From: Eledone cirrhosa | Taxonomy: Eukaryota | Assembly: GCA_964016885.1 (NCBI GenBank) | Contig: OZ024763.1 | Span: forward strand, 25,792,001-25,856,000 | Direction of reading: 5' to 3' | Length of the DNA stretch: 64,000 nucleotides | In this document: positions 14,028 to 52,920 of the stretch, in pieces | How the letters are laid out: each line of letters starts with the position of its first letter | Position numbering within the stretch: the stretch's first letter is position 1 | Translations under genes and position numbers: made by a program | The notes under the pieces: generated by a model | Seen by the model: the letters and a program-made list of their open reading frames with translations, nothing else | Told to the model about the DNA's origin: nothing | Database searches by the model: none

Positions 14028-14203
14028 ATTCGCACAGAACTAGGTTTAGGTGAGGAAGATGAGCGTTCAGGTGTTGTTGTAGCGTGTTACCTTGCACAGC
14101 AAGGTGCAGATATCCATCATAAAAACCACCGAAAAGTCATACCACTCGACATCATACATGACAAACTATTAGGAGAAAGGGTGAAGCGGTTTGCCTCAAT
14201 TTC
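14028..14203 (+). CDS. MIB2: MIB2 exon (last ankyrin repeat / linker)
   Basis: gacag acceptor, TC|gtaagt donor; IRTELGLGEEDERSGVVVACYLAQQGADIHHKNHRKVIPLDIIHDKLLGERVKRFASIS. Confidence 0.88.
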
Positions 14204-15300
14204 GTAAGTATGGAGAAACAATAGCACTGCAAAAATAAACTTTTCCTTGCATTGCTTTTAATATTTTCATATTTGTTTTCGGTTGCTAAATACAGTCAGG
14301 GGTCGCTGCTTTTCCTGAAGGTCAATAGTTCTTCTAACTCGAGCGGGAGCGCCTTTCCATTGTCAATTTGCATTGATCATCTGCAAAGCTGCATTGATCT
14401 ATGTTATATACACACCATTATATACAGTTATATACATAATATACACACCCAGAGTTATATATGTTATATACACACCATTATATATACCAATATACACACA
14501 TCATTATATATACACTATTATATATGCACCATTATATATCTAATCTAATCTATTCTGGTTGAGTCTACACTCGCAAATAAGAAGAAACAGGGCCGCCCTT
14601 AGGAGCATTGGATTTGGTGTACTTCATATTTGTTTTGATTGCTGAATACAATCAGGGGTCGCTGCTTCTCCTGAGAGTCAATAGTTCTCTTGTAACTCGA
14701 ACAGGAGTGCCTTTCCATTGTCAATTTGCATTGATAATCTGCAAAGCCGCATTGTTCTCAGAACCACTACACCAGTCTTTCGTTGTGTGCAGCGGGAACT
14801 ACTGCCACCCATTGATTTGGCAGGATTTTTTTTTTTTTAAATTACTTATTTTATAGCATGTGTGCGTATATATAACATATTTTATCTTATTTATAAATAG
14901 TCGCAAAACCAAACAGCTTGTCTTGTGCTTATTTGTCAGGGCCTATGAGAGTGGGGTCCAGCTGGTACTTTGTTCTGGGGCCCAAGAGCTAAGAAGGCCG
15001 CACAGCAACCATGCAACATCCATTTTGAGAAAAATCTTTGCCTGCTTCGGGCCCCAAAGGGTTCTTGTACCACCTTGTAGAATTTCTCTTGAAGGCCCTG
15101 TTATTTGTTACAGTTCCTTGTGCACTGGGGCCAGTTGTATCAACCTTAATGCACTGAAACAACTTACCTTCAGCTATCAGTTGATGAGATGGAACTCTCT
15201 GTGTTTCGTTCGTTTTTCCGTTGTCGTCGCCCATATTTTTTATTATTTTGTATGATTTTAGCTACGTGGGGTCCTTTTTTCAAATATATATGTATGTGTT

Positions 15301-15332
<32 letters not shown>

Positions 15333-15525
15333 AAGTATTTCCATAGAAAAGGTAAAGGAAAGAAGAGTGCTCTATGTATAGTACAGAGCTATTTAATGAC
15401 ATAATAAACAACACAATATAATTATTCCATTACCAAAGGTTTCAGGAGACTAGACTATCTTTACAGAAACGTCCAGAATAAGAAAGTGTGAAGTATTTCA
15501 GATGTTAAAGTCCTTTATTGATAAG

Positions 15526-15599
15526 GCTGTGATACATATTTCAATGACGACAGTGGCCATGCAATCTGCCTAATCCGTGCTATGATCTCATCAGACAGC
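15526..15599 (-). ncRNA. Minimal type I hammerhead ribozyme
   Basis: Minus strand: gctgt CUGAUGA [45-nt stem II region] GAAA tatgta UC acagc; AATAAA just downstream. Confidence 0.65.
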
Positions 15600-15904
15600 T
15601 TCTTACATAATAAGGTTACGTTCTCGAGGCAATCCAAATTAAAACGATAAGGGAACAGACAAAGACAATGCCCTTGAAGCCTTTGTGTATTTAGCAAAAT
15701 ATAACTGAATCATTATCAATCATATATATGAAATTAGGAGAATAATATTACATTAGGTATGACTCAAAGTTATAGCTGCCATATAGAAGGTACTAATCGA
15801 GTTGTTTGAGGCAATCACAAAGCACTCAGTATATACATATATATATATGTATATGCATATATATATATGTATATATATATGTGTATGTATATATGTATAT
15901 ATAT

Positions 15905-18900
15905 ATAAAAACAAATAACAAAACGAAATTAAATTTCGTTTCGTTTGTAACTCACTTTTGTATGACTGACGCTTAAACAATTAAGTTAAAAATGTACATC
16001 TACATATGCATACTGAAATACTAGTGTGTATATGAATACACACACGTATACATATGTAGGTGTAACAAGTCTTTCACTGGTTGCTTTACTGTGAGCAACC
16101 CAGCTATTTTGTATGTAAACACACAGACAAACCGGTTTTTAGAGTCATACTGGTTTTCGGGGGAACACCTTCCCTCTATTCTCCAGAAAGCCAGACAAGG
16201 AATATTGAACTAGTTTCGTTGTTGTTACAACTCATCAGCAATATTTACCTATCTACCGGCCCCTCTGGAGAATTGTAAAAGCACATATCGTTATATGCTT
16301 TTTCTATGAAAATTAGTAGTGGGCAGACTAATTTGCATAGAGTGTGAGTACGCACCGGTTCAGCGGAGACGATAAAAACAAATAACAAAACGAAATTAAA
16401 TTTCGTTTCGTTTGTAACTCACTTTTGTATGACTGACGCTTAAACAATTAAGTTAAAAATGTACATCTACATATGCATACTGAAATACTAGTGTGTATAT
16501 GAATACACACACGTATACATATGTAGGTGTAACAAGTCTTTCACTGGTTGCTTTACTGTGAGCAACCCAGCTATTTTGTATGTAAACACACAGACAAACC
16601 GGTTTTTAGAGTCATACTGGTTTTCGGGGGAACACCTTCCCTCTATTCTCCAGAAAGCCAGACAAGGAATATTGAACTAGTTTCGTTGTTGTTACAACTC
16701 ATCAGCAATATTTACCTATCTACCGGCCCCTCTGGAGAATTGTAAAAGCACATATCGTTATATGCTTTTTCTATGAAAATTAGTAGTGGGCAGACTAATT
16801 TGCATAGAGTGTGAGTACGCACCGGTTCAGCGGAGACGATAAAAACAAATAACAAAACGAAATTAAATTTCGTTTCGTTTGTAACTCACTTTTGTATGAC
16901 TGACGCTTAAACAATTAAGTTAAAAATGTACATCTACATATGCATACTGAAATACTAGTGTGTATATGAATACACACACGTATACATATGTAGGTGTAAC
17001 AAGTCTTTCACTGGTTGCTTTACTGTGAGCAACCCAGCTATTTTGTATGTAAACACACAGACAAACCGGTTTTTAGAGTCATACTGGTTTTCGGGGGAAC
17101 ACCTTCCCTCTATTCTCCAGAAAGCCAGACAAGGAATATTGAACTAGTTTCGTTGTTGTTACAACTCATCAGCAATATTTACCTATCTACCGGCCCCTCT
17201 GGAGAATTGTAAAAGCACATATCGTTATATGCTTTTTCTATGAAAATTAGTAGTGGGCAGACTAATTTGCATAGAGTGTGAGTACGCACCGGTTCAGCGG
17301 AGACGATAAAAACAAATAACAAAACGAAATTAAATTTCGTTTCGTTTGTAACTCACTTTTGTATGACTGACGCTTAAACAATTAAGTTAAAAATGTACAT
17401 CTACATATGCATACTGAAATACTAGTGTGTATATGAATACACACACGTATACATATGTAGGTGTAACAAGTCTTTCACTGGTTGCTTTACTGTGAGCAAC
17501 CCAGCTATTTTGTATGTAAACACACAGACAAACCGGTTTTTAGAGTCATACTGGTTTTCGGGGGAACACCTTCCCTCTATTCTCCAGAAAGCCAGACAAG
17601 GAATATTGAACTAGTTTCGTTGTTGTTACAACTCATCAGCAATATTTACCTATCTACCGGCCCCTCTGGAGAATTGTAAAAGCACATATCGTTATATGCT
17701 TTTTCTATGAAAATTAGTAGTGGGCAGACTAATTTGCATAGAGTGTGAGTACGCACCGGTTCAGCGGAGACGATAAAAACAAATAACAAAACGAAATTAA
17801 ATTTCGTTTCGTTTGTAACTCACTTTTGTATGACTGACGCTTAAACAATTAAGTTAAAAATGTACATCTACATATGCATACTGAAATACTAGTGTGTATA
17901 TGAATACACACACGTATACATATGTAGGTGTAACAAGTCTTTCACTGGTTGCTTTATTGAATATTGAACTAGTTTCGTTGTTGTTACAACTCATCAGCAA
18001 TATTTACCTATCTACCGGCCCCTCTGGAGAATTGTAAAAGCACATATCGTTATATGCTTTTTCTATGAAAATTAGTAGTGGGCAGACTAATTTGCATAGA
18101 GTGTGAGTACGCACCGGTTCAGCGGAGACGATAAAAACAAATAACAAAACGAAATTAAATTTCGTTTCGTTTGTAACTCACTTTTGTATGACTGACGCTT
18201 AAACAATTAAGTTAAAAATGTACATCTACATATGCATACTGAAATACTAGTGTGTATATGAATACACACACGTATACATATGTAGGTGTAACAAGTCTTT
18301 CACTGGTTGCTTTACTGTGAGCAACCCAGCTATTTTGTATGTAAACACACAGACAAACCGGTTTTTAGAGTCATACTGGTTTTCGGGGGAACACCTTCCC
18401 TCTATTCTCCAGAAAGCCAGACAAGGAATATTGAACTAGTTTCGTTGTTGTTACAACTCATCAGCAATATTTACCTATCTACCGGCCCCTCTGGAGAATT
18501 GTAAAAGCACATATCGTTATATGCTTTTTCTATGAAAATTAGTAGTGGGCAGACTAATTTGCATAGAGTGTGAGTACGCACCGGTTCAGCGGAGACGATA
18601 AAAACAAATAACAAAACGAAATTAAATTTCGTTTCGTTTGTAACTCACTTTTGTATGACTGACGCTTAAACAATTAAGTTAAAAATGTACATCTACATAT
18701 GCATACTGAAATACTAGTGTGTATATGAATACACACACGTATACATATGTAGGTGTAACAAGTCTTTCACTGGTTGCTTTACTGTGAGCAACCCAGCTAT
18801 TTTGTATGTAAACACACAGACAAACCGGTTTTTAGAGTCATACTGGTTTTCGGGGGAACACCTTCCCTCTATTCTCCAGAAAGCCAGACAAGGAATATTG

Positions 18901-21745
18901 AACTAGTTTCGTTGTTGTTACAACTCATCAGCAATATTTACCTATCTACCGGCCCCTCTGGAGAATTGTAAAAGCACATATCGTTATATGCTTTTTCTAT
19001 GAAAATTAGTAGTGGGCAGACTAATTTGCATAGAGTGTGAGTACGCACCGGTTCAGCGGAGACGATAAAAACAAATAACAAAACGAAATTAAATTTCGTT
19101 TCGTTTGTAACTCACTTTTGTATGACTGACGCTTAAACAATTAAGTTAAAAATGTACATCTACATATGCATACTGAAATACTAGTGTGTATATGAATACA
19201 CACACGTATACATATGTAGGTGTAACAAGTCTTTCACTGGTTGCTTTACTGTGAGCAACCCAGCTATTTTGTATGTAAACACACAGACAAACCGGTTTTT
19301 AGAGTCATACTGGTTTTCGGGGGAACACCTTCCCTCTATTCTCCAGAAAGCCAGACAAGGAATATTGAACTAGTTTCGTTGTTGTTACAACTCATCAGCA
19401 ATATTTACCTATCTACCGGCCCCTCTGGAGAATTGTAAAAGCACATATCGTTATATGCTTTTTCTATGAAAATTAGTAGTGGGCAGACTAATTTGCATAG
19501 AGTGTGAGTACGCACCGGTTCAGCGGAGACGATAAAAACAAATAACAAAACGAAATTAAATTTCGTTTCGTTTGTAACTCACTTTTGTATGACTGACGCT
19601 TAAACAATTAAGTTAAAAATGTACATCTACATATGCATACTGAAATACTAGTGTGTATATGAATACACACACGTATACATATGTAGGTGTAACAAGTCTT
19701 TCACTGGTTGCTTTACTGTGAGCAACCCAGCTATTTTGTATGTAAACACACAGACAAACCGGTTTTTAGAGTCATACTGGTTTTCGGGGGAACACCTTCC
19801 CTCTATTCTCCAGAAAGCCAGACAAGGAATATTGAACTAGTTTCGTTGTTGTTACAACTCATCAGCAATATTTACCTATCTACCGGCCCCTCTGGAGAAT
19901 TGTAAAAGCACATATCGTTATATGCTTTTTCTATGAAAATTAGTAGTGGGCAGACTAATTTGCATAGAGTGTGAGTACGCACCGGTTCAGCGGAGACGAT
20001 AAAAACAAATAACAAAACGAAATTAAATTTCGTTTCGTTTGTAACTCACTTTTGTATGACTGACGCTTAAACAATTAAGTTAAAAATGTACATCTACATA
20101 TGCATACTGAAATACTAGTGTGTATATGAATACACACACGTATACATATGTAGGTGTAACAAGTCTTTCACTGGTTGCTTTACTGTGAGCAACCCAGCTA
20201 TTTTGTATGTAAACACACAGACAAACCGGGTTGCTCACAGTAAAGCAACCAGTGAAAGACTTGTTACACCTACATATGTATACGTGTGTGTATTCATATA
20301 CACACTAGTATTTCAGTATGCATATGTAGATGTACATTTTTAACTTAATTGTTTAAGCGTCAGTCATACAAAAGTGAGTTACAAACGAAACGAAATTTAA
20401 TTTCGTTTTGTTATTTGTTTTTATCGTCTCCGCTGAACCGGTGCGTACTCACACTCTATGCAAATTAGTCTGCCCACTACTAATTTTCATAGAAAAAGCA
20501 TATAACGATATGTGCTTTTACAATTCTCCAGAGGGGCCGGTAGATAGGTAAATATTGCTGATGAGTTGTAACAACAACGAAACTAGTTCAATATTCCTTG
20601 TCTGGCTTTCTGGAGAATAGAGGGAAGGTGTTCCCCCGAAAACCAGTATGACTCTAAAAACCGGTTTGTCTGTGTGTTTACATACAAAATAGCTGGGTTG
20701 CTCACAGTAAAGCAACCAGTGAAAGACTTGTTACACCTACATATGTATACGTGTGTGTATTCATATACACACTAGTATTTCAGTATGCATATGTAGATGT
20801 ACATTTTTAACTTAATTGTTTAAGCGTCAGTCATACAAAAGTGAGTTACAAACGAAACGAAATTTAATTTCGTTTTGTTATTTGTTTTTATCGTCTCCGC
20901 TGAACCGGTGCGTACTCACACTCTATGCAAATTAGTCTGCCCACTACTAATTTTCATAGAAAAAGCATATAACGATATGTGCTTTTACAATTCTCCAGAG
21001 GGGCCGGTAGATAGGTAAATATTGCTGATGAGTTGTAACAACAACGAAACTAGTTCAATATTCCTTGTCTGGCTTTCTGGAGAATAGAGGGAAGGTGTTC
21101 CCCCGAAAACCAGTATGACTCTAAAAACCGGTTTGTCTGTGTGTTTACATACAAAATAGCTGGGTTGCTCACAGTAAAGCAACCAGTGAAAGACTTGTTA
21201 CACCTACATATGTATACGTGTGTGTATTCATATACACACTAGTATTTCAGTATGCATATGTAGATGTACATTTTTAACTTAATTGTTTAAGCGTCAGTCA
21301 TACAAAAGTGAGTTACAAACGAAACGAAATTTAATTTCGTTTTGTTATTTGTTTTTATCGTCTCCGCTGAACCGGTGCGTACTCACACTCTATGCAAATT
21401 AGTCTGCCCACTACTAATTTTCATAGAAAAAGCATATAACGATATGTGCTTTTACAATTCTCCAGAGGGGCCGGTAGATAGGTAAATATTGCTGATGAGT
21501 TGTAACAACAACGAAACTAGTTCAATATTCCTTGTCTGGCTTTCTGGAGAATAGAGGGAAGGTGTTCCCCCGAAAACCAGTATGACTCTAAAAACCGGTT
21601 TGTCTGTGTGTTTACATACAAAATAGCTGGGTTGCTCACAGTAAAGCAACCAGTGAAAGACTTGTTACACCTACATATGTATACGTGTGTGTATTCATAT
21701 ACACACTAGTATTTCAGTATGCATATGTAGATGTACATTTTTAAC

Positions 21746-21751
<6 letters not shown>
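15905..21751. mobile_element. Retrozyme-like array 1: 467-bp hammerhead-bearing monomer, about 9.5 copies (ribozyme on -) then about 3.3 inverted copies (ribozyme on +), flanked by (TA)n
   Basis: Unit starts at 15905, 16372, 16839, 17306, 17773, 18131, 18598, 19065, 19532, 19999; inversion at about 20228; 12 hammerhead cores. Confidence 0.9.
20524..20617 (+). ncRNA. Hammerhead ribozyme of array 1 (representative; + cores at 20558, 21025, 21492; nine - strand cores from 16232 to 19859)
   Basis: aatattg CUGAUGA gttgt-aaca-acaac GAAA ctag UU caatatt; stem I extends to ttctccaga/tctggagaa; palindromic stem III CTAG. Confidence 0.92.
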
Positions 21752-21789
<38 letters not shown>

Positions 21790-21793
<4 letters not shown>

Positions 21794-22363
21794 CCCAGTA
21801 CAACCTGTCTCATGGTCGGGTCGTTGGCGACTAAACTGGCAACCCCACCAAGGTTTCTTGGTGAGGAGGGTGACTTTGGACATAATGCAGGACTAAAAAC
21901 GAAACCTGTCAAAGGGCAAAGGAGCTCTTAAGAGTCAATGGCCATCCAAAATCACCGGGAGAGATGACCCCTTAGCCTTTGTCAAGGCAGAATTCTAGGA
22001 GAAGGAAAACTCTGATATAACACCTGCAACTCTGATGGTATCCAATGATGTTGACTTGTTCTTCTTTTTGGTAAATATCATCTTGGTTAAGAGAGGGGGA
22101 CTGGCTTTGTGCAGTGCCTTTGCTCACTATAAAAGCTTCACGGCACAGGCATTGCTTTATATCTGGAGATCTCTCTGCACTTGTCGTCACAGGGTACCAT
22201 GGGCCCAGCACTATGTGTCAATAATTGTCACAAGTGTAGTGTTTGTACCAGAGTTTTCAAGTCGCTGGCTGGACTAAAAAGTCACACTCGTTCAGCGCAT
22301 CAGTAGGGGTTCTCCTACATGGATATAAAGTAGTGGCCATACTCGAAAACGAGTTGGCAGCCA

Positions 22364-22365
<2 letters not shown>
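21790..22365 (-). repeat. Interspersed repeat of uncertain class (related diverged copy at about 28013-28500, +)
   Basis: Shared start ggctgcc...tcgtt-tcgagtat-gccat and shared internal blocks; flanked by (TA)n. Confidence 0.5.
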
Positions 22366-22414
<49 letters not shown>

Positions 22415-22492
22415 TCTCGGGAATTTTACCCACTATAGATAGATATATATGATGTAGGACAGAACAACGGAGAAACACAAAATAAAACCCTA

Positions 22493-22535
22493 GTCACTGA
22501 GGAGGTCGCAGAATGTGTGACGAAAGAGCTTTGAC
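22493..22535 (+). ncRNA. Degenerate minimal hammerhead
   Basis: gtca CUGAGGA g gtcgca-gaatg-tgtgac GAAA gagc UU tgac, inside a ~250-bp TA-flanked insert. Confidence 0.5.
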
Positions 22536-22843
22536 AATATATAAACAACCTTCTGGTTATCGAACCAACCAACCAACCGGAAATTTATGATAAATTGAAG
22601 TGAAAACCAACAAGTGAGTGTGTTTTTATTGGTAACATGACCTTCCCAAAGTATAACAATATGTATATATATATATATATATATGTATATGTGTGGTAAG
22701 GGTGGGTGAGAGTATGTGTGTATTTTTCTCTCTCTCTGTGTGGCTATATTGATTCATTTTTTTTCTCTCTCTCTCTCTCTCACTTTCTGTCCTTGTCTCA
22801 TTTTATTTTTTCCACATATCATTCCTTTTTCTTTCTTCCAAAG

Positions 22844-23040
22844 AAGGAGTCATAAAGCTGCAGGCCAAATTGAGGGTCCCAGAAACCATATCAATGACTG
22901 TGTGGTGTGCTCTGATAAACCAGCCAATGTGAAATTCCAGCCTTGCGGCCATGTTGTTACCTGTGAAGACTGCAGCCTAAAAATTACAATTAAAAAATGT
23001 ATCCAGTGTAAAGTGCCTGTAATTAGTAAAATTGGAGTTG
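22844..23040 (+). CDS. MIB2: MIB2 exon encoding first RING finger
   Basis: Polypyrimidine tract, AAG/AAG tandem acceptor, G|gtaggt donor; CVVCSDKPANVKFQPCGHVVTCEDCSLKITIKKCIQCKVPV (C3HC4); phases 2 and 1 fit neighbouring exons. Confidence 0.9.
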
Positions 23041-23836: not shown

Positions 23837-26800
23837 ATTGGAATAAATGCTCTGAAATAGCGATATATATGTGAATATAGACATAGAATATTCGAAAATA
23901 TTCTGTATGTTTATAATAAACATTTTGAAGACCTAATCGCTATAGAATAGAATACGTCACGTATTACAATTAGATTCTCGATAAAAGCAAGGGAAGTAAT
24001 CTACGCGTTTCATTCTTGTTAGAAATCATCAGGACCACATATCCAGTGCTTTTATCGAGAATGACACAGCTAGAGACTTATAGAATACTTAGCTGTGTAC
24101 AGGAACTGGTTTGAAAGAGCGGTTGCCGGTCCGGCAGAAATTAGAAATTGGAATAAATGCTCTGAAATAGCGATATATATGTGAATATAGACATAGAATA
24201 TTCGAAAATATTCTGTATGTTTATAATAAACATTTTGAAGACCTAATCGCTATAGAATAGAATACGTCACGTATTACAATTAGATTCTCGATAAAAGCAA
24301 GGGAAGTAATCTACGCGTTTCATTCTTGTTAGAAATCATCAGGACCACATATCCAGTGCTTTTATCGAGAATGACACAGCTAGAGACTTATAGAATACTT
24401 AGCTGTGTACAGGAACTGGTTTGAAAGAGCGGTTGCCGGTCCGGCAGAAATTAGAAATTGGAATAAATGCTCTGAAATAGCGATATATATGTGAATATAG
24501 ACATAGAATATTCGAAAATATTCTGTATGTTTATAATAAACATTTTGAAGACCTAATCGCTATAGAATAGAATACGTCACGTATTACAATTAGATTCTCG
24601 ATAAAAGCAAGGGAAGTAATCTACGCGTTTCATTCTTGTTAGAAATCATCAGGACCACATATCCAGTGCTTTTATCGAGAATGACACAGCTAGAGACTTA
24701 TAGAATACTTAGCTGTGTACAGGAACTGGTTTGAAAGAGCGGTTGCCGGTCCGGCAGAAATTAGAAATTGGAATAAATGCTCTGAAATAGCGATATATAT
24801 GTGAATATAGACATAGAATATTCGAAAATATTCTGTATGTTTATAATAAACATTTTGAAGACCTAATCGCTATAGAATAGAATACGTCACGTATTACAAT
24901 TAGATTCTCGATAAAAGCAAGGGAAGTAATCTACGCGTTTCATTCTTGTTAGAAATCATCAGTCCTGATGATTTCTAACAAGAATGAAACGCGTAGATTA
25001 CTTCCCTTGCTTTTATCGAGAATCTAATTGTAATACGTGACGTATTCTATTCTATAGCGATTAGGTCTTCAAAATGTTTATTATAAACATACAGAATATT
25101 TTCGAATATTCTATGTCTATATTCACATATATATCGCTATTTCAGAGCATTTATTCCAATTTCTAATTTCTGCCGGACCGGCAACCGCTCTTTCAAACCA
25201 GTTCCTGTACACAGCTAAGTATTCTATAAGTCTCTAGCTGTGTCATTCTCGATAAAAGCACTGGATATGTGGTCCTGATGATTTCTAACAAGAATGAAAC
25301 GCGTAGATTACTTCCCTTGCTTTTATCGAGAATCTAATTGTAATACGTGACGTATTCTATTCTATAGCGATTAGGTCTTCAAAATGTTTATTATAAACAT
25401 ACAGAATATTTTCGAATATTCTATGTCTATATTCACATATATATCGCTATTTCAGAGCATTTATTCCAATTTCTAATTTCTGCCGGACCGGCAACCGCTC
25501 TTTCAAACCAGTTCCTGTACACAGCTAAGTATTCTATAAGTCTCTAGCTGTGTCATTCTCGATAAAAGCACTGGATATGTGGTCCTGATGATTTCTAACA
25601 AGAATGAAACGCGTAGATTACTTCCCTTGCTTTTATCGAGAATCTAATTGTAATACGTGACGTATTCTATTCTATAGCGATTAGGTCTTCAAAATGTTTA
25701 TTATAAACATACAGAATATTTTCGAATATTCTATGTCTATATTCACATATATATCGCTATTTCAGAGCATTTATTCCAATTTCTAATTTCTGCCGGACCG
25801 GCAACCGCTCTTTCAAACCAGTTCCTGTACACAGCTAAGTATTCTATAAGTCTCTAGCTGTGTCATTCTCGATAAAAGCACTGGATATGTGGTCCTGATG
25901 ATTTCTAACAAGAATGAAACGCGTAGATTACTTCCCTTGCTTTTATCGAGAATCTAATTGTAATACGTGACGTATTCTATTCTATAGCGATTAGGTCTTC
26001 AAAATGTTTATTATAAACATACAGAATATTTTCGAATATTCTATGTCTATATTCACATATATATCGCTATTTCAGAGCATTTATTCCAATTTCTAATTTC
26101 TGCCGGACCGGCAACCGCTCTTTCAAACCAGTTCCTGTACACAGCTAAGTATTCTATAAGTCTCTAGCTGTGTCATTCTCGATAAAAGCACTGGATATGT
26201 GGTCCTGATGATTTCTAACAAGAATGAAACGCGTAGATTACTTCCCTTGCTTTTATCGAGAATCTAATTGTAATACGTGACGTATTCTATTCTATAGCGA
26301 TTAGGTCTTCAAAATGTTTATTATAAACATACAGAATATTTTCGAATATTCTATGTCTATATTCACATATATATCGCTATTTCAGACCATTTATTCCAAT
26401 TTCTAATTTCTGCCGGACCGGCAACCGCTCTTTCAAACCAGTTCCTGTACACAGCTAAGTATTCTATAAGTCTCTAGCTGTGTCATTCTCGATAAAAGCA
26501 CTGGATATGTGGTCCTGATGATTTCTAACAAGAATGAAACGCGTAGATTACTTCCCTTGCTTTTATCGAGAATCTAATTGTAATACGTGACGTATTCTAT
26601 TCTATAGCGATTAGGTCTTCAAAATGTTTATTATAAACATACAGAATATTTTCGAATATTCTATGTCTATATTCACATATATATCGCTATTTCAGAGCAT
26701 TTATTCCAATTTCTAATTTCTGCCGGACCGGCAACCACTCTTTCAAACCAGTTCCTGTACACAGCTAAGTATTCTATAAGTCTCTAGCTGTGTCATTCTC

Positions 26801-27601
26801 GATAAAAGCACTGGATATGTGGTCCTGATGATTTCTAACAAGAATGAAACGCGTAGATTACTTCCCTTGCTTTTATCGAGAATCTAATTGTAATACGTGA
26901 CGTATTCTATTCTATAGCGATTAGGTCTTCAAAATGTTTATTATAAACATACAGAATATTTTCGAATATTCTATGTCTATATTCACATATATATCGCTAT
27001 TTCAGAGCATTTATTCCAATTTCTAATTTCTGCCGGACCGGCAACCGCTCTTTCAAACCAGTTCCTGTACACAGCTAAGTATTCTATAAGTCTCTAGCTG
27101 TGTCATTCTCGATAAAAGCACTGGATATGTGGTCCTGATGATTTCTAACAAGAATGAAACGCGTAGATTACTTCCCTTGCTTTTATCGAGAATCTAATTG
27201 TAATACGTGACGTATTCTATTCTATAGCGATTAGGTCTTCAAAATGTTTATTATAAACATACAGAATATTTTCGAATATTCTATGTCTATATTCACATAT
27301 ATATCGCTATTTCAGAGCATTTATTCCAATTTCTAATTTCTGCCGGACCGGCAACCGCTCTTTCAAACCAGTTCCTGTACACAGCTAAGTATTCTATAAG
27401 TCTCTAGCTGTGTCATTCTCGATAAAAGCACTGGATATGTGGTCCTGATGATTTCTAACAAGAATGAAACGCGTAGATTACTTCCCTTGCTTTTATCGAG
27501 AATCTAATTGTAATACGTGACGTATTCTATTCTATAGCGATTAGGTCTTCAAAATGTTTATTATAAACATACAGAATATTTTCGAATATTCTATGTCTAT
27601 A

Positions 27602-27605
<4 letters not shown>
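23837..27605. mobile_element. Retrozyme-like array 2: 310-bp hammerhead-bearing monomer, about 3.6 copies (ribozyme on -) then about 8.5 inverted copies (ribozyme on +), flanked by (TA)n
   Basis: 310-bp period (ggtcctgatg at 25271, 25581, ..., 27441); inversion at 24962-24965; only two substitutions noticed (26387, 26737). Confidence 0.9.
25245..25333 (+). ncRNA. Hammerhead ribozyme of array 2 (representative)
   Basis: tggtc CUGAUGA t-ttct-aaca-agaa-t GAAA cgcg UA gatta; distal stem I attctcgataaaagca/tgcttttatcgagaat is a perfect 16-bp pairing; palindromic stem III CGCG. Confidence 0.85.
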
Positions 27606-27673
<68 letters not shown>

Positions 27674-38892: not shown

Positions 38893-41800
38893 CCACCACC
38901 ACCAACACTACCATCACCACTACTATCACCTCTATCACTACCAACACTACCACCACCACCACCAACACTACCATCACCACTACTATCACCTCTATCACTA
39001 CCAACACTACCACCACCAACAACACTACCATCAACACTACTATCACCTCTATCACTACCAACACTACCACCACCACCAACACTACCATCACCACTACTAT
39101 CACCTCTATCACTACCAACACTACCACCACCACCACCAACACTACCACCACCACCAACAACACTACCACCACCACTACTATCACCTCTATCACTACCAAC
39201 ACTACCACCACCACCACCAACACTACCATCACCACTACTATCACCTCTATCACTACCAACACTACCATCACCACTACTATCACCTCTATCACTACCAACA
39301 CTACCACCACCACCAACAACACTACCAACACCACTACTATCACCTCTATCACTACCAACACTACCACCACCACCAACACTACCACCACCACTACTATCAC
39401 CTCTATCACTACCAACACTACCACCACCACCAACAACACTACCACCACCACTACTATCACCTCTATCACTACCAACACTACCACCACCACCACCAACACT
39501 ACCACCACCACTACTATCACCTCTATCACTACCACCACCACTACTATCACCTCTATCACTACCAACACTACCACCACCACCACCAACACTACCATCACCA
39601 CTACTATCACCTCTATCACTACCAACACTACCACCACCACCACCAACACTACCACCAACAACACTACCACCACCACTACTATCACCTCTATCACTACCAA
39701 CACTACCACCACCACCAACACTACCATCACCACTACTATCACCTCTATCACTACCAACACTACCACCACCACCACCAACAACACTACCATCACCACTACT
39801 ATCACCTCTATCACTACCAACACTACCACCACCACCAACACTACCACCACCACTACTATCACCTCTATCACTACCAACACTACCACCACCACCAACACTA
39901 CCATCACCACTACTATCACCTCTATCACTACCAACACTACCACCACCACCACCAACACTACCACCACCACTACTATCACCTCTATCACTACCAACACTAC
40001 CACCACCACCAACACTACCATCACCACTACTATCACCTCTATCACTACCAACACCACCACCACCACCAACACTACCACCACCACTACTATCACCTCTATC
40101 ACTACCAACACTACCACCACCACCAACAACACTACCACCACCACCAACAACACTACCACCACCACTACTATCACCTCTATCACTACCAACACCACCACCA
40201 CCACCAACACTACCACCACCACTACTATCACCTCTATCACTACCAACACTACCACCACCACCACCAACACTACCACCACCACTACTATCACCTCTATCAC
40301 TACCAACACTACCACCACCACCACCAACACTACCATCACCACTACTATCACCTCTATCACTACCAACACTACCACCACCACCAACAACACTACCATCACC
40401 ACTACTATCACCTCTATCACTACCAACACTACCACCACCACCAACACTACCACCACCACTACTATCACCTCTATCACTACCAACACTACCACCACCACCA
40501 ACACTACCATCACCACTACTATCACCTCTATCACTACCAACACTACCACCACCACCACCAACACTACCACCACCACTACTATCACCTCTATCACTACCAA
40601 CACTACCACCACCACCAACACTACCACCACCACTACTATCACCTCTATCACTACCAACACTACCACCACCAACAACACTACCATCACCACTACTATCACC
40701 TCTATCACTACCAACACTACCACCACCACCAACACTACCACCACCACTACTATCACCTCTATCACTACCAACACTACCACCACCACCAACACTACCATCA
40801 CCACTACTATCACCTCTATCACTACCAACACTACCACCACCACCAACACTACTATCACCTCTATCACTACCAACACTACCAACACCACCAACAACACTAC
40901 CACCACCACTACTATCACCTCTATCACTACCAACACTACCACCACCAACAACACTACCATCACCACTACTATCGCCTCTATCACTACCAACACCACCACC
41001 ACCACCAACACTACCACCACCACTACTATCACCTCTATCACTACCAACACTACCACCACCACCAACAACACTACCACCACCACCACCAACACTACCACCA
41101 CCACTACTATCACCTCTATCCCTACCAACACTACCACCACCACCAACAACACTACCACCACCACTACTATCACCTCTATCACTACCAACACTACCACCAC
41201 CACCAACACTACCATCACCACTACTATCACCTCTATCACTACCAACACTACCACCACCACCACCAACACTACCATCACCACTACTATCACCTCTATCACT
41301 ACCAACACTACCACCACCACCAACACTACCACCACCACTACTATCACCTCTATCACTACCAACACTACCACCACCAACAACAACACTACCAACACCACTA
41401 CTATCACCTCTATCACTACCAACACTACCACCACCACCAACACTACCACCACCACTACTATCACCTCTATCACTACCAACACTACCACCACCACCAACAC
41501 TACCACCACCACTACTATCACCTCTATCACTACCAACACTACCACCACCACCAACACTACCAACACCACTACTAACACCTCTATCACTACCAACACTACC
41601 ACCACCACCAACACTACCACCACCACTACTATCACCTCTATCACTACCAACACTACCACCACCACCAACAACACTACCACCACCACTACTATCACCTCTA
41701 TCACTACCAACACTACCACCACCACCACCAACACTACCACCACCACTACTATCACCTCTATCACTACAACCACCACTACTATCACCTCTATCACTACCAA

Positions 41801-44800
41801 CACTACCACCACCACCACCAACACTACCATCACCACTACTATCACCTCTATCACTACCAACACTACCACCACCACCACCAACACTACCACCACCACCAAC
41901 AACACTACCACCACCACTACTATCACCTCTATCACTACCAACACTACCACCACCACCAACAACACTACCATCACCACTACTATCACCTCTATCACTACCA
42001 ACACCACCACCACCACCAACACTACCACCACCACTACTATCACCTCTATCACTACCAACACTACCACCAACAACACTACCACCACCACTACTATCACCTC
42101 TATCACTACCAACACTACCACCACCACCACCAACACTACCACCACCACTACTATCACCTCTATCACTACCACCACCACTACTATCACCTCTATCACTACC
42201 AACACTACCACCACCACCACCAACACTACCATCACCACTACTATCACCTCTATCACTACCAACACTACCACCACCACCACCAACACTACCACCACCACTA
42301 CTATCACCTCTATCACTACCAACACTACCACCACCACCAACAACACTACCATCACCACTACTATCACCTCTATCACTACCAACACCACCACCACCACCAA
42401 CACTACCATCACCACTACTATCACCTCTATCACTACCAAGACTACCACCACCACCAACAACACTACCATCACCACTACTATCACCTCTATCACTACCAAC
42501 ACTACCACCACCACCAACACTACCACCACCACTACTATCACCTCTATCACTACCAACACTACCACCACCACCAACACTACCATCACCACTACTATCACCT
42601 CTATCACTACCAACACTACCACCACCACCACCAACACTACCACCACCACTACTATCACCTCTATCACTACCAACACTACCACCACCACCAACACTACCAC
42701 CACCACTACTATCACCTCTATCACTACCAACACTACCACCACCAACAACACTACCACCACCACTACTATCACCTCTATCACTACCAACACTACCACCACC
42801 ACCAACACTACCACCACCACTACTATCACCTCTATCACTACCAACACTACCACCACCACCAACACTACCATCACCACTACTATCACCTCTATCACTACCA
42901 ACACTACCACCACCACCAACACTACTATCACCTCTATCACTACCAACACTACCACCACCACCAACACTACCATCACCACTACTATCACCTCTATCACTAC
43001 CAACACTACCACCACCACCACCAACACTACCACCACCACTACTATCACCTCTATCACTACCAACACTACAACCACCACCAACAACACTACCACCACAACT
43101 ACTATCACCTCTATCACTACCAACACTACCACCACCACCAACAACACTACCACCACCACTACTATCACCTCTATCACTACCAACACTACCACCACCACCA
43201 ACACTACCACCACCACTACTATCACCTCTATCACTACCAACACTACCACCACCAACAACACTACCATCAACACTACTATCACCTCTATCACTACCAACAC
43301 TACCACCACCACCAACACTACCATCACCACTACTATCACCTCTATCACTACCAACACTACCACCACCACCAACACTACCATCACCACTACTATCACCTCT
43401 ATCACTACCAACACTACCACCACCACCACCAACACTACCACCACCACTACTATCACCTCTATCACTACCAACACTACCACCACCACCAACAACACTACCA
43501 CCACCACTACTATCACCTCTATCACTACCAACACTACCACCACCACCAACAACACTACCACCACCACTACTATCACCTCTATCACTACCAACACTACCAC
43601 CACTAACAACACTACCACCACCACTACTATCACCTCTATCACTACCAACACTACCACCACCAACAACAACACTACCATCAACACTACTATCACCTCTATC
43701 ACTACCAACACTACCACCACCACCAACAACACTACCACCACCACTACTATCACCTCTATCACTACCAACACTACCACCACCACCAACACTACCACCACCA
43801 CTACTATCACCTCTATCACTACCAACACTACCACCACCAACAACACTACCACCACCACTACTATCACCTCTATCACTACCAACACTACCACCACCACCAA
43901 CAACACTACCACCACCACTACTATCACCTCTATCACTACCAACACTCACCACCACCAACAACACTACCACCACCACTACTATCACCTCTATCACTACCAC
44001 ACCACCACCAACAACAACACTACCACCACCACTACTATCACCTCTATCACTACCAACACTACCACCACCAACAACACTACCACCACCACTACTATCACCT
44101 CTATCACTACCAACACTACCACCACCACCAACAACACTACCACCACCACTACTATCACCTCTATCACTACCAACACTACCACCACCACCAACAACACTAC
44201 CACCACCACTACTATCACCTCTATCACTACCAACACTACCACCACCACCAACAACACTACCACCACCACTACTATCACCTCTATCACTACCAACAATACC
44301 ACCACCAACAACAACACTACCACCACCACTACTATCACCTCTATCACTACCAACACTACCACCACCTACAACAACACTACCACCACCACTACTATCACCT
44401 CTATCACTACCAACACTACCACCACCAACAACAACACTACCACCACCACTACTATCACCTCTATCACTACCAACACTACCACCACCAACAACAACTACCA
44501 CCACCACTACTATCACCTCTATCACTACCAACACTACCACCACCACCAACAACACTACCACCACCACTACTATCACCTCTATCACTACCAACACTACCAC
44601 CACCACCAACAACACTACCACCACCACTACTATCACCTCTATCACTACCAACACTACTACCACCACCACCAACAACACTACCACCACCACTACTATCACC
44701 TCTATCACTACCAACACTACCACCACCACCAACAACACTACCACCACCACTACTATCACCTCTATCACTACCAACACTACCACCACCACCAACAACACTA

Positions 44801-47800
44801 CCATCACCACTACTATCACCTCTATCACTACCAACACTACCACCACCACCAACAACAACACTACCACCACCACTACTATCACCTCTATCACTACCAACAC
44901 TACCACCACCACCAACAACACTACCACCACCACTACTATCACCTCTATCACTACCAACACTACCACCACTAACAACACTACCACCACCACTACTATCACC
45001 TCTATCACTACCAACACTACCACCACCAACAACAATACTACCACCACCACTACTATCACCTCTATCATTACCAACACTACCACCACTAACAACACTACCA
45101 CCACCACTACTATCACCTCTATCACTACCACCACCAACAACAACACTACCACCACCACTACTATCACCTCTATCACTACCAACACTACCACCACTAACAA
45201 CACTACCACCACCACTACTATCACCTCTATCACTACCAACACTACCACCACCACCAACAACACTACCACCTCCACTACTATCACCTCTATCACTACCAAC
45301 ACTACCACCACCAACAACAACACTACCACCACCACTACTATCACCTCTATCACTACCAACACTACCACCACCACCAACAACACTACCATCACCACTACTA
45401 TCACCTCTATCACTACCACCACCACCAACAACACTACCACCACCACTACTATCACCTCTATCACTACCACCACCACCAACAACACTACCACCACCACTAC
45501 TATCACCTCTATCACTACCAACACTACCACCACCACCAACACTACCACCACCACTACTATCACCTCTATCACTACCAACACTACCACCACCACCAACACT
45601 ACCATCACCACTACTATCACCTCTATCACTACCAACACTACCACCACCACCACCAACACTACCACCACCACTACTATCACCTCTATCACTACCAACACTA
45701 CAACCACCACCAACAACACTACCACCACAACTACTATCACCTCTATCACTACCAACACTACCACCACCACCAACAACACTACCACCACCACTACTATCAC
45801 CTCTATCACTACCAACACTACCACCACCACCAACACTACCACCACCACTACTATCACCTCTATCACTACCAACACTACCACCACTAACAACACTACCACC
45901 ACCACTACTATCACCTCTATCACTACCAACACTACCACTACCAACAACAACACTACCACCACCACTACTATCACCTCTATCACTACCAACACTACCACCA
46001 CCAACAACACTACCATCACCACTACTATCACCTCTATCACTACCAACACTACCACCACCACCACCAACAACACTACCATCACCACTACTATCACCTCTAT
46101 CACTACCAACACTACCACCACCACCAACAACACTACCACCACCACTACTATCACCTCTATCACTACCAACACTACCACCACCACCAACAACACTACCACC
46201 ACCACTACTATCACCTCTATCACTACCAACACTACCACCACTAACAACACTACCACCACTAACAACACTACCACCACCACTACTATCACCTCTATCACTA
46301 CCAACACTACCACCACCAACAACAACACTACCACCACCACTACTATCACCTCTATCATTACCAACACTACCACCACTAACAACACTACCACCACCACTAC
46401 TATCACCTCTATCACTACCACCACCAACAACAACACTACCACCACCACTACTATCACCTCTATCACTACCAACACTACCACCACTAACAACACTACCACC
46501 ACCACTACTATCACCTCTATCACTACCAACACTACCACCACCACCAACAACACTACCACCTCCACTACTATCACCTCTATCACTACCAACACTACCACCA
46601 CCAACAACAACACTACCACCACCACTACTATCACCTCTATCACTACCAACACTACCACCACCACCAACAACACTACCATCACCACTACTATCACCTCTAT
46701 CACTACCACCACCACCAACAACACTACCACCACCACTACTATCACCTCTATCACTACCACCACCACCAACAACACTACCACCACCACTACTATCACCTCT
46801 ATCACTACCAACACTACCACCACCACCAACAACACTACCACCACCACTACTATCACCTCTATCACTACCAACACTACTACCACCACCACCAACAACACTA
46901 CCACCACCACTACTATCACCTCTATCACTACCAACACTACCACCACCACCAACAACACTACCATCACCACTACTATCACCTCTATCACTACCAACACTAC
47001 CACCACCACCACCAACACTACCACCACCACTACTATCACCTCTATCACTACCAACACTACCACCACCACCAACAACACTACCACCACCACTACTATCACC
47101 TCTATCACTACCAACACTACCACCACCACCAACAACACTACCACCACCACTACTATCACCTCTATCACTACCAACACTACCACCACCACCAACACTACCA
47201 TCATCACTACTATCACCTCTATCACTACCAACACTACCACCACCACCAACAACACTACCACCACCACTACTATCACCTCTATCACTACCAACACTACCAT
47301 CACCACTACTATCACCTCTATCACTACCAACACTACTACCACCACCACCACCAACACTACCATTACCACTACTATCACCTCTATCACTACCAACACTACC
47401 ACCACCACCAACAACACTACCATCACCACTACTATCACCTCTATCACTACCAACACTACCACCACTACCAACAACACTACCACCACCACTACTATCACCT
47501 CTATCACTACCAACACTACCACCACCACTACTATCACCTCTATCACTACCAACACTACCACCACCACCAACAACACTACCACCACCACTACTATGACCTC
47601 TATCACTACCAACACTACCACCACCACCAACAACACTACCACCACCACTACTATCACCTCTATCACTACCAACACTACCACCACCACCACCAACACTACC
47701 ACCACCACTACTATCACCTCTATCACTACCAACACTACCACCACCCACCAACACTACCATCACCACTACTATCACCTCTATCACTACCAACACTACCACC

Positions 47801-50800
47801 ACCACCAACACTACCATCACCACTACTATCACCTCTATCACTACCAACACTACCACCACCAACAACACTACCACCACCACTACTATCACCTCTATCACTA
47901 CCAACACTACCACCACCACCAACACTACCACCACCACTACTATCACCTCTATCACTACCAACACTACCACCCAACACTACCACCACCACTACTATCACCT
48001 CTATCACTACCAACACTACCACCACCAACAACACTACCACCACCACTACTATCACCTCTATCACTACCAACACTACCACCACCAACAACACTACCACCAC
48101 CACTACTATCACCTCTATCACTACCAACACTACCACCACCACCAACAACACTACCACCACCACTACTATCACCTCTATCACTACCAACACTACCACCACC
48201 ACCAACACTACCATCACCACTACTATCACCTCTATCACTACCACACTACCACCACCAACAACACTACCACCACCACTACTATCACCTCTATCACTACCAA
48301 CACTACCACCACCACTACTATCACCTCTATCACTACCACACTACCACCACCACCAACACTACCATCACCACTACTATCACCTCTATCACTACCAACACTA
48401 CCACCACCACCAACAACACTACCACCACCACTACTATCACCTCTATCACTACCAACACTACCACCACCAACAACACTACCATCACCACTACTATCACCTC
48501 TATCACTACCAACACTACCACCACCACCAACAACACTACCATCACCACTACTATCACCTCTATCACTACCAACACTACCATCACCACTACTATCACCTCT
48601 ATCACTACCAACACTACCACCACCACCACCAACAACACTACCACCACCACTACTATCACCTCTATCACTACCAACACTACCACCACCACCAACAACACTA
48701 CCACCACCACTACTATCACCTCTATCACTACCAACACTACCACCACTAACAACACTACCACCACCACTACCAACACTACCACCACTAACAACACTACCAC
48801 CACCACTACTATCACCTCTATCACTACCACCACCACAACAACACTACCACCACCACTACTATCACCTCTATCACTACCAACACTACCACCACTAACAACA
48901 CTACCACCACCACTACTATCACCTCTATCACTACCAACACTACCACCACCACCAACAACACTACCACCTCCACTACTATCACCTCTATCACTACCAACAC
49001 TACCACACACCAACAACAACACTACCACCACCACTACTATCACCTCTATCACTACCAACACTACCACCACCACTACTATCACCTCTATCACTACCAACAC
49101 TACCACCACCACCAACAACACTACCATCACCACTACTATCACCTCTATCACTACCACCACCACCAACAACACTACCACCACCACTACTATCACCTCTATC
49201 ACTACCACCCACCACCAACAACACTACCACCACCACTACTATCACCTCTATCACTACCAACACTTCCACCACCACCAACACTACCACCACCACTACTATC
49301 ACCTCTATCACTACCAACACTACCACCACCACCAACACTACCATCACCACTACTATCACCTCTATCACTACCAACACTACCACCACCACCACCAACACTA
49401 CCACCACCACTACTATCACCTCTATCACTACCAACACTACCACCACCACCAACAACACTACCACCACCACTACTATCACCTCTATCACTACCAACACTAC
49501 CACCACCACCAACACTACCACCACCACTACTATCACCTCTATCACTACCAACACTACTACCACCACCAACAACACTACCATCACCACTACTATCACCTCT
49601 ATCACTACCAACACTACCACCACCACCACCAACAACACTACCATCACCACTACTATCACCTCTATCACTACCAACACTACCACCACCACCAACAACACTA
49701 CCACCACCACTACTATCACCTCTATCACTACCAACACTACCACCACCACCAACAACACTACCACCACCACTACTATCACCTCTATCACTACCAACACTAC
49801 CACCACTAACAACACTACCACCACCACTACTATCACCTCTATCACTACCAACACTACCACCACCAACAACAACACTACCACCACCACTACTATCACCTCT
49901 ATCATTACCAACACTACCACCACTAACAACACTACCACCACCACTACTATCACCTCTATCACTACCACCACCAACAACAACACTACCACCACCACTACTA
50001 TCACCTCTATCACTACCAACACTACCACCACTAACAACACTACCACCACCACTACTATCACCTCTATCACTACCAACACTACCAACACCACCAACAACAC
50101 TACCACCTCCACTACTATCACCTCTATCACTACCAACACTACCACCACCAACAACAACACTACCACCACCACTACTATCACCTCTATCACTACCAACACT
50201 ACCACCACCACCAACAACACTACCATCACCACTACTATCACCTCTATCACTACCACCACCACCAACAACACTACCACCACCACTACTATCACCTCTATCA
50301 CTACCAACACTACCACCACCACCAACAACACTACCACCACCACTACTATCACCTCTATCACTACCAACACTACTACCACCACCACTACTATCACCTCTAT
50401 CACTACCAACACTACCACCACCACCAACAACACTACCATCACCACTACTATCACCTCTATCACTACCAACACTACCACCACCACCACACACCCCACACTA
50501 CCACCACCACTACTATCACCACTACTTCACCTCATCACTACCACACTACCACACCACCACCAACACTACCACCACCACTACTATCACCTCTATCACTACC
50601 AACACTACCACCACCACCAACAACACTACCACCACCACTACTATCACCTCTATCACTACCAACACTACCACCACCACCAACAACACTACCACCACCACTA
50701 CTATCACCTCTATCACTACCAACACTACCACCACCACCAACACTACCATCATCACTACTATCACCTCTATCACTACCAACACTACCACCACCACCAACAA

Positions 50801-52920
50801 CACTACCACCACCACTACTATCACCTCTATCACTACCAACACTACCATCACCACTACTATCACCTCTATCACTACCAACACTACCACCACCACCAACAAC
50901 ACTACCACCACCACTACTATCACCTCTATCACTACCAACACTACCAACACCACTACTATCACCTCTATCACTACCCAACACTACCACCACCACCAACAAC
51001 ACTACCACCACCACTACTATCACCTCTATCACTACCAACACAACACCACACCACAACTATCACCTCTATCACTACCAACACAACCACCACCACCAACAAC
51101 ACTACCACCACCACTACTATCACCTCTATCACTACCAACACTACCACCACCACCAACAACACTACCACCACCACTACTATCACCTCTATCACTACCAACA
51201 CTACCACCACCACCACCAACACTACCACCACCACTACTATCACCTCTATCACTACCAACACTACCACCACCACCACCAACACTACCATCACCACTACTAT
51301 CACCTCTATCACTACCAACACTACCACCAACACTACCACCACCACTACTATCACCTCTATCACTACCAACACTACCACCACCACTACTATCACCTCAAAC
51401 ACTACCAACACTACCACCACCACCAACAACACTACCATCACCACTACTATCACCTCTATCACTACCAACACTACCACCACTACCAACAACACTACCACCA
51501 CCACTACTATCACCTCTATCACTACCAACACTACCACACCACAACAACACTACCACCACCACTACTATCACCTCTATCACTACCAACACTACCACCACCA
51601 CCAACACTACCACACCACTACTATCACCTCTATCACTACCAACACTACCACCACCAACAACACTACCACCACCACTACTATCACCTCTATCACTACCAAC
51701 ACTACCACCACCACCAACACTACCACCACCACTACTATCACCTCTATCACTACCAACACTACCACCACCAACACACTACCACCACCACTACATCACCTCT
51801 ATCACTACCAACACTACCACCACCACCAACACTACCACCACCACTACTATCACCTCTATCACTACCAACACTACCACCACCACCAACACTACCATCACCA
51901 CTACTAACACCTCTATCACTACCAACACTACCACCACCAACAACACTACCACCACCACTACTATCACCTCTATCACTACCAACACTACCACCACCACCAA
52001 CACTACCACCACCACTACTATCACCTCTATCACTACCAACACTACCACCACCACCAACACTACCACCACCACTACTATCACCTCTATCACTACCAACACT
52101 ACCACCACCAACAACACTACCACCACCACTACTATCACCTCTATCACTACCAACACTACCACCACCACCAACACTACCACCACCACCAACACTACCATCA
52201 CCACTACTATCACCTCTATCACTACCAACACTACCACCACCACCAACAACACTACCACCACCACTACTATCCCTCTATCACTACCAACACTACCACCACC
52301 ACTACTATCACCTCTATCACTACCAACACTACCACCACCAACAACACTACCACCACCACTACTATCACCTCTATCACTACCAACACTACCACCACCACCA
52401 ACACTACCACCACCACTACTATCACCTCTATCACTACCAAAACTACCACCACCACCAACACTACCATCACCACTACTATCACCTCTATCACTACCAACAC
52501 TACCACCACCACCAACAACACTACCACCACCACTACTATCACCTCTATCACTACCAACACTACCACCACCAACAACACTACCACCACCACTACTATCACC
52601 TCTATCACTACCAACACTACCACCACCACCAACAACACTACCACCACCACTACTATCACCTCTATCACTACCAACACTACCAACACTACCATCACCACTA
52701 CTATCACCTCTATCACTACCAACACTACCACCACCACCAACACTACCATCACCACTACTATCACCTCTATCACTACCAACACTACCATTACCACTACTAT
52801 CACCTCTATCACTACCAACACTACCACCACCACCAACAACACTACCATCACCACTACTATCACCTCTATCACTACCAACACTACCACCACCAACGACAAC
52901 ACTACCATTACCACTATCAC
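38893..52920. repeat. ~14-kb minisatellite with variable ~54-63 bp unit actactatcacctctatcactaccaacact(acc)n aacact(acc)n
   Basis: Directly visible; almost no G on the + strand. Confidence 0.95.

Follow-up and report, generated by a model that had tools for sequence, protein, structure and literature searches.

How does a repeat that carries a ribozyme, and no protein-coding gene, come to lie as two opposed tandem arms inside a TA microsatellite? The question is raised by an array of a 467-nt unit in the octopus Eledone cirrhosa (assembly GCA_964016885.1, contig OZ024763.1, positions 25,792,001 to 25,856,000 of the forward strand). This whole stretch of 64,000 nucleotides is called the window, and positions are counted from its first letter. 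On balance, we read the array as one very recent insertion of a retrozyme lacking long terminal repeats (non-LTR retrozyme). It was likely made by the enzyme of a Penelope-like element (PLE) acting on both DNA strands, and probably copied from circular or uncut multi-unit RNA. The hammerhead ribozyme itself is ordinary. The notable part is a near-strict rule by which the two arms of an insertion end at two different fixed sites, one 'long' and one 'short'.

An earlier note on this DNA had described a tandem repeat at 15905..21751, with copies identical apart from one deletion. The 467-nt period was recovered over this full range, and period-to-period comparison gave 0 mismatches in 1585, 1804 and 1057 positions. 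The very recent insertion proposed in the note is supported. The tandem arrangement also stands, but not as one head-to-tail run. Mapping of 20-mers onto the unit gave exact segments at 15905-17956 and 17959-20229 on one strand, and at 20228-21751 on the opposite strand. The strand switch at 20228/20229 had been missed. The arms are divergent, with the ribozyme-sense RNA of each heading outward into a TA tract. They differ in length and are not mirror images. Twelve hammerhead cores were found, of which the minus strand has nine and the plus strand three. Unit position 1 is the base right after the predicted cut (window 20589). The array comprises the following features.

15830..15904, no strand: left TA-rich microsatellite flank, the insertion target
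15905..20229, minus strand: minus arm of about 9.3 units with 9 cores; outer 3' end at unit 303, the 'long' end (A)
15905..15978, minus strand: 'tail' of about 70 nt (unit 230-303), at the long end only, with a 13-bp hairpin
16232, 16699, 17166, 17633, 17991, 18458, 18925, 19392 and 19859, minus strand: hammerhead cores
17957..17958, minus strand: deletion junction in one copy, 2 nt in place of unit 9-119 (net -109), outer stem I lost
20228..20229, no strand: inner head-to-head junction, where unit 73 (minus) meets unit 107 (plus) with a 2-nt overlap
20228..21751, plus strand: plus arm of 3.26 units with 3 cores; outer 3' end at unit 229, the 'short' end (B)
20458..20465, plus strand: octamer ATGCAAAT, 100 nt upstream of the core
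20524..20617, plus strand: type I hammerhead, core at 20558, predicted cut after 20588
20589..21055, plus strand: one cut-to-cut monomer of 467 nt
20621..20717, plus strand: two hairpins outside the ribozyme (unit 33-49 and 107-129)
20991-21084 and 21458-21551, plus strand: further hammerheads
21752..21793, no strand: right (TA)n flank

The unit has a GC content of about 0.36 and its longest stop-to-stop frame is 70 aa. We agree with the note that a repeated 65-aa open reading frame (ORF) is incidental: it is TTG-started, antisense to the ribozyme and without a Pfam match. The unit holds no reverse transcriptase (RT) or GIY-YIG ORF, and tblastn with four PLE proteins gave no match in the window. 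No long terminal repeat layout was seen among the mapped loci. At the level of sequence, the repeat has the features of non-LTR retrozymes, being tandem, non-coding and dispersed.

The outer ends of other copies carry the main evidence. The core pattern of this family has 9,265 matches in the genome, and near-identical copies lie on many contigs. A first set comprised the window and 39 loci picked by identity from the matches listed. One duplicate (L024), one nested copy (L047), L054 (left arm ending outside the TA tract) and eight one-armed loci were excluded. Of the 29 two-armed loci left, 27 paired an end near unit 303 with one at 224-234 (p = 8e-7 relative to a coin toss); the exceptions were L053 (long/long) and L058 (short/short). 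A second set of 24 insertions was picked by position along contig C1, from part of the core matches listed. All 12 two-armed loci with both ends read were long/short. The remainder were nine one-armed loci (three of them, judged by eye, keep a stub of the second end), L134 and L166 with atypical ends, and L179, where an end was not reached. When the sets were pooled, 41 two-armed loci had each end at a fixed site, and 39 of them were long/short. The flanks of 58 two-armed loci identify an AT-rich or TA microsatellite target. Arms are joined head to head, with an overlap of 0-4 nt or a few filler bases, and inner junctions differ between loci. Hence, an assembly artefact is disfavoured.

Some individual copies are unusual. 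L023 and L024 (C25, 78 kb apart) are the same insertion with the same flanks, reflecting a segmental duplication or an uncollapsed haplotype. At C1:5738326-5752444 (L163, L164) lies a 14-kb array of the 467-nt family with 31 cores in one arm and 1 in the other. The one-armed copy at L167:1061-1560 has flanks that are mutually inverted for about 11 bases around TA runs. About 150 nt of degenerate TA follow the long end at L156:1835-1988, with few TA bases on the other flank. Insertion itself may create or lengthen part of a TA tract.

The layout is shared by two further retrozyme families. The window holds a second two-armed hammerhead array at 23837-27614 (310-nt unit, palindrome ACGCGU, loop AACA, TA tracts). 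Its fixed ends lie near unit 139 and 165, its inner junction falls within the ribozyme core, and its unit resembles the 467-nt unit only around the hammerhead. Across this family, 19 of 21 loci were two-armed with typical ends, and all 19 paired one end near 139 with another at 159-172. L110 was atypical and L118 one-armed. The third family has units of about 480-510 nt, some 65-70% like the 467-nt unit, with compensatory changes in the hammerhead stems. Its ends look homologous to the long and short ends of the 467-nt unit. It was found at the following loci.

L100:7979-9901; L101:3000-3600 and 1-500; L084, L130, L131, L151, L153-L155, L157 and L159: third family

The octamer ATGCAAAT is often present upstream in the third family. 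It lies 80-88 nt upstream of the core in some sister-family copies, is absent from the 310-nt family and, judged by sequence, is a possible promoter element. A small nuclear RNA-type promoter, like that of newt satellite 2, was considered and set aside: a literature search gave no confirmation. Core-like CTGATGA motifs also occur at window 29619, 32118 and 32214, and hammerhead-like motifs of other families in the flanks of L069, L092, L096 and L097.

Autonomous PLEs of this genome were examined for the same scars. GIY-YIG elements abound in this genome: among 10,597 candidates, 150 were scored and 50 stretches fetched. All four long ORFs scanned contain RVT_1 and three of the four contain GIY-YIG. 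The CX4CXXC linker, which characterises Neptune and Nematis (PMC8557442), is present in three of the four. Seven of nine two-armed autonomous loci had one arm ending nearer the hammerhead-like motif and both ends in TA tracts; the other two were unclear. Such motifs were detected by scan in three PLE families, some with the U3-A8 core variant, and those of two more families were picked by eye. RT elements of other types are also present in the genome. Neptune-type families with long open ORFs lie at L090:2250-7600, L092:1775-6700, L093, L102 and L108, and have variant cores (U3-A8; in one, GCAA for GAAA). One Neptune-type family has a tail of about 65 nt, against the 30-40 nt usually cited.

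Endonuclease-bearing PLEs described elsewhere (PMC8557442, PMC11167929) share head-to-head inversion, a microsatellite or AT-rich target, two fixed ends, a one-sided tail and a hammerhead upstream of the starts. Their insertions include an inverted, 5'-truncated copy and a one-sided tail of 30-40 bp (PMC8557442), compared with about 70 nt here. By analogy, we equate the segment of about 70 nt at the long end with the Penelope-like tail. Unlike PLEs (PMC8557442, PMC11167929), the array has no ORF, and an arm can hold 12 or more repeats of the unit. Exceptions to long/short pairing are few here, whereas the wording of Craig et al. is 'often' at one end (PMC8557442). An in vitro study of a Penelope-like protein (PMC11167929) showed that it cleaves AT-rich DNA on both strands, extends both, and begins copying at two neighbouring sites inside the RNA, which mark the limits of the tail. 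The retrozyme scars match Penelope-type insertion because of the fixed long and short ends, the TA target, the PLE layout and this two-site priming.

We next describe the ribozyme. The core reads CUGAUGA..GAAA..GUU; its first base is 20558 and its GUU occupies 20586-20588. It has the CUGANGA / GAAA / UH core, three helices and open-ended helix I of a type I hammerhead. Folding of 20519-20622 (z -4.5) recovered the intact core, long bulged stem I (20524-20617) and 5-bp, G-C-closed stem II with loop AACA already described in the note. Helix III is reduced to a short palindrome, as had been said, with 2 bp (A-U and C-G) inside ACUAGU. The label 'minimal' has to be replaced. According to the definitions of PMC4209133, a 'canonical' motif has a helix I of 6 bp, a helix II of 4 bp and a palindromic helix III of 1-2 bp, while the minimal hammerhead ribozyme ('min-HHR') has no helix III. 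With its palindromic 2-bp helix III and long stem I, the motif is by sequence a canonical metazoan type I hammerhead rather than a min-HHR. The min-HHRs of metazoan PLEs resemble it in being palindromic at the helix III region and in being predicted to act as dimers, but they have a short helix I and lack helix III and loop 3 (PMC4209133); helix I here is 7 bp plus a bulged extension. Canonical architecture with a dimer mode and the U3-A8 core variant are described in the same source.

A search of Rfam hammerhead models, which the note had suggested, gave no match at the gathering threshold. The best was Hammerhead_HH9 (RF02275; 38.6 bits against a gathering score of 52, E 1.9e-8), which aligns over the whole model including bulged stem I, with helix III here 5 nt shorter. 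The general core pattern has 52,932 matches in the 3.0-Gb genome and the reversed control has 0. Hence, a chance origin of the pattern is excluded. Covariation was assessed in 14 variants hand-picked among 55 distinct ones, representing three lineages and one solo motif (L152). The core was invariant, 88.5% of cells were paired (slid controls, 37-47%) and two-sided changes occurred in 13 of 18 pairs. The central bases of helix III always stay self-complementary (UA in 9, GC in 4, AU in 1). Therefore, pairing between two ribozymes is the sole sensible reading. The optimal fold of a two-unit span has both cores open and the palindromes paired between units, and a constrained strict double hammerhead lies 1.8 kcal/mol above this optimum. 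In the single-unit fold, the core is prone to mispairing. The covariation and the double-hammerhead fold, together with the same architecture and dimer mode in PMC4209133, support the cut after 20588 as a prediction, and the models make a dimer mode likely.

Folding of the whole monomer is less telling. Its ends pair through stem I, closing a multi-hairpin fold. Compared with shuffles, the monomer scored z -7.6 when linear (0 of 100 shuffles as good) and z -7.4 when circular (0 of 40), the latter being a check named in the note; four flank controls scored from z +1.7 to -2.1. The antisense strand folds equally well (z -7.9). Hence, the folding score shows neither a circle nor a strand, and we rejected it as proof of circular RNA, a role the note had given to self-complementarity. 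The two hairpins quoted there were read on the antisense strand. In subfamilies 86-94% identical, both bases had changed in 2 to 8 pairs, where 0.4 to 1.5 would be expected, and most of these can still pair; the rows share ancestry, and the structure is that predicted for the window copy. These pairs lie in the two hairpins at unit 33-49 and 107-129 and in stem II. Single changes at paired positions in the same subfamilies gave G-U more often than A-C. Such compensatory changes are better evidence than the folding score for selection on RNA shape.

The following mechanism would account for these scars. Briefly, arrays would be transcribed into multi-unit RNA. Neighbouring hammerheads are predicted to pair through the palindromic helix III and cut after GUU, freeing 467-nt monomers. 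Stem I would hold the monomer ends for ligation into circles, where the lone ribozyme, without a partner, would be weak. A Penelope-type RT/GIY-YIG protein, perhaps a dimer, would then nick both strands of a TA tract. One 3' end would start copying at unit ~303 and the other at 229-234. As the pattern of the arrays suggests, both copies would pass through as many as 12 units or more, stop variably and join head to head.

What was the template? Arms run across the predicted cut site as many as 12 times, and inner ends show no excess at that site (5 of 78 at unit 1-25, against 4.2 expected). Hence, a cut linear monomer was not the template, and run-off at the ribozyme cut was rejected on the same count. 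Variants private to a locus, among the loci sampled, are fixed in every unit of both arms at L126 (14 of 14 units), L127, L128, L129, L034 and L043; such variants may be subfamily markers. At L179, 18 identical units in two arms differ from the window unit by 29 substitutions. These observations argue for a one-unit bottleneck followed by re-amplification. We hold it somewhat better than an even bet that circles were the template for fully homogeneous arrays, such as that of the window, with uncut multimers serving in other events. Inner ends are enriched at unit 216-265 in both arm types (10 and 7), an interval chosen post hoc. The idea that the long-end copy runs into the primer of the short end was considered as a cause and dropped: the enrichment is in both arm types and a structural pause is as likely.

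Several observations count against this account. At L123, one variant occurs in unit -1 of both arms and in no other unit, which speaks against a monomer circle in every event. Two unit types alternate at L022, with an exception at the primed end. A 4-unit block is repeated at L039 and does not continue as a 4-mer circle would. Given L022 and L039, higher-order repeats were discarded as proof of multimer circles. Variants at L168 are shared among units as a mosaic. Therefore, arrays are also shaped by duplication of units at the DNA level or by templates of several units. Target-site duplications were found at 12 of 58 loci, compared with 10.9% in mismatched pairs, and are weak overall. They are clear (7-8 nt) at L022, L043, L049 and L135; an 11-nt candidate in the window is indistinguishable from microsatellite noise. 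The pLTR (pseudo-long terminal repeat) and tail regions of five PLE families gave only TA-type matches to the unit by blastn and nhmmer. The covariation alignment counts too, because its cells, drawn from three lineages and one solo motif, are not independent events and contain few independent changes. In the literature, cleavage was obtained for one of nine retrozyme dimers (Li et al., 10.64898/2026.07.22.740005), and the Penelope-like protein showed no strand difference in start site and did not need ribozyme cleavage (PMC11167929). Two related searches concerned direct joins. A PLE-retrozyme chimera suspected at L156 was rejected, the PLE piece being a 191-nt, 82% identical fragment without a terminal repeat. 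Fourteen longer stretches, most of them surrounding loci that are one-armed or atypical, contained no PLE arm joined to the repeat.

These points bear unequally on the other explanations. Two-sided Penelope-type insertion could always have used uncut linear multi-unit RNA, with no circles. Uniform arrays would then come from uniform sources and later DNA-level duplication, and the ribozyme would trim transcripts or be inherited from a pLTR. We think this unlikely, while taking it seriously. Variants fixed in all units of both arms would still need a one-unit bottleneck and re-amplification, and 5'-truncated copying only shortens arrays. Against it, too, hairpins far from the ribozyme covary and the monomer ends pair. 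Alternatively, single priming could be followed by fold-back of the complementary DNA, which would copy itself into an inverted second arm. In some loci (L123, L056, L022), a variant does recur in both arms at one and the same unit offset, the unit is rich in hairpins and inner ends cluster near strong ones. However, the long-end arm is longer in 17 of 27 long/short loci and shorter in 10. Hence, neither arm is always the template. The stop of the second arm at the other fixed site is unexplained by fold-back, and the enzyme extends both strands in vitro (PMC11167929). Fold-back is, in our view, quite improbable.

An RT of another kind would have to leave the same marks. Mobilisation by a long interspersed nuclear element (LINE)-type RT, with twin priming like that of L1, would fit the lack of a PLE partner with a homologous end in the five families compared, and the other RT elements of the genome. 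Against this, the inner primer site is fixed rather than variable, the arms overlap on the template and a poly(A) tail is absent. L123 shows that both arms can copy the same stretch, unlike L1 twin priming. Target, inversion and one-sided tail match the PLEs of this genome and of the literature (PMC8557442). We give the LINE-type route very little credence. An ordinary satellite amplified at the DNA level, or a fold-back artefact of long-read assembly, with an incidental hammerhead, is hardly credible at all. The units are 100% identical, the inversion could mimic a chimeric read and, although short contigs from four of six listed sequencing runs contain the unit, none spans the inner junction. 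Yet inner junctions differ among dozens of loci while the pair of outer ends stays the same. The layout recurs in three families and in autonomous elements, covariation is seen in the ribozyme helices, and the arms are unequal. This explanation is already largely refuted. Two-sided insertion by a Penelope-type enzyme, with circular or uncut multi-unit templates, is the account we prefer.

The array is likely to lie within an intron of a plus-strand gene, judging by the exons on either side.

14028..14203, plus strand: upstream exon of the host gene, in an open frame, with a GT donor following 14203 and without a Pfam match
22844..23040, plus strand: downstream host exon, C3HC4 RING finger (PF13920, E 2e-12)

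The exon ending at 14203 joins the RING-finger exon in frame. Hence, the array would be placed in an 8.6-kb intron (14204-22843). The host gene may resemble the mind bomb E3 ligases. If the array is intronic, the host pre-mRNA would be expected to contain three sense hammerheads and a perfect duplex of 1.5 kb. Elsewhere in the window, 38893-54802 is a 16-kb, almost G-free tandem array (CCA/ACT-type, plus strand).

How does the array compare with known retrozymes? Those of coral, mussel and axolotl (PMC7229834) share a tandem, low-GC, non-coding unit, one type I hammerhead and thousands of copies. Axolotl retrozymes have a similarly short helix III and cut better as dimers (PMC7229834). The unit here is 467 nt, compared with RNAs of 170-400 nt and repeats of 150-450 bp in that work. 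Circular RNA was demonstrated for those retrozymes; by analogy, a compact circular RNA is plausible for the present unit. PLEs were proposed in PMC7229834 as the mobilising partner of metazoan retrozymes. Li, Clavereau and Pollet (2026; 10.64898/2026.07.22.740005) reached the same conclusion, that PLE machinery mobilises retrozymes, and PLEs co-occur here too. Their link is co-occurrence and pLTR homology (a Xenopus case); ours is insertion scars, and pLTR homology was not found in the five families compared. They report that retrozymes are excluded from introns, whereas the window copy is likely intronic. Inverted arms and tails are not described in either retrozyme paper, supplements aside. 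The words 'inverted' and 'octopus' are absent from the main text of PMC7229834; in that of Li et al., 'tail' is absent and 'inverted' appears only in the title of a reference. A literature search of incomplete coverage, by title or abstract start and supplements aside, gave nothing on a two-armed retrozyme layout or octopus hammerheads.

The earlier link between retrozymes and PLEs, as set out in these papers, consisted of co-occurrence and pLTR homology, without an insertion mechanism; here, the scars point to the machinery. They give start sites at ~303 and 229-234. With the 467-nt RNA, the TA target and intact-looking RT-endonuclease ORFs of this very genome, the mechanism is directly testable in an in vitro system already published. 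More tentatively, and with rather less confidence than we place in a Penelope-type insertion, the arrays may be records of rolling-circle reverse transcription. A ribozyme-made RNA circle would be copied by a dimeric Penelope-type, telomerase-related RT, each active site being given its own start point and DNA end. Some 50,000 hammerheads of one type would have spread in this way, recognised by RNA shape and not by any sequence held in common with the partner. If this is true, one asymmetric step would account for both the inverted copy and the one-sided tail in all endonuclease-bearing PLEs.

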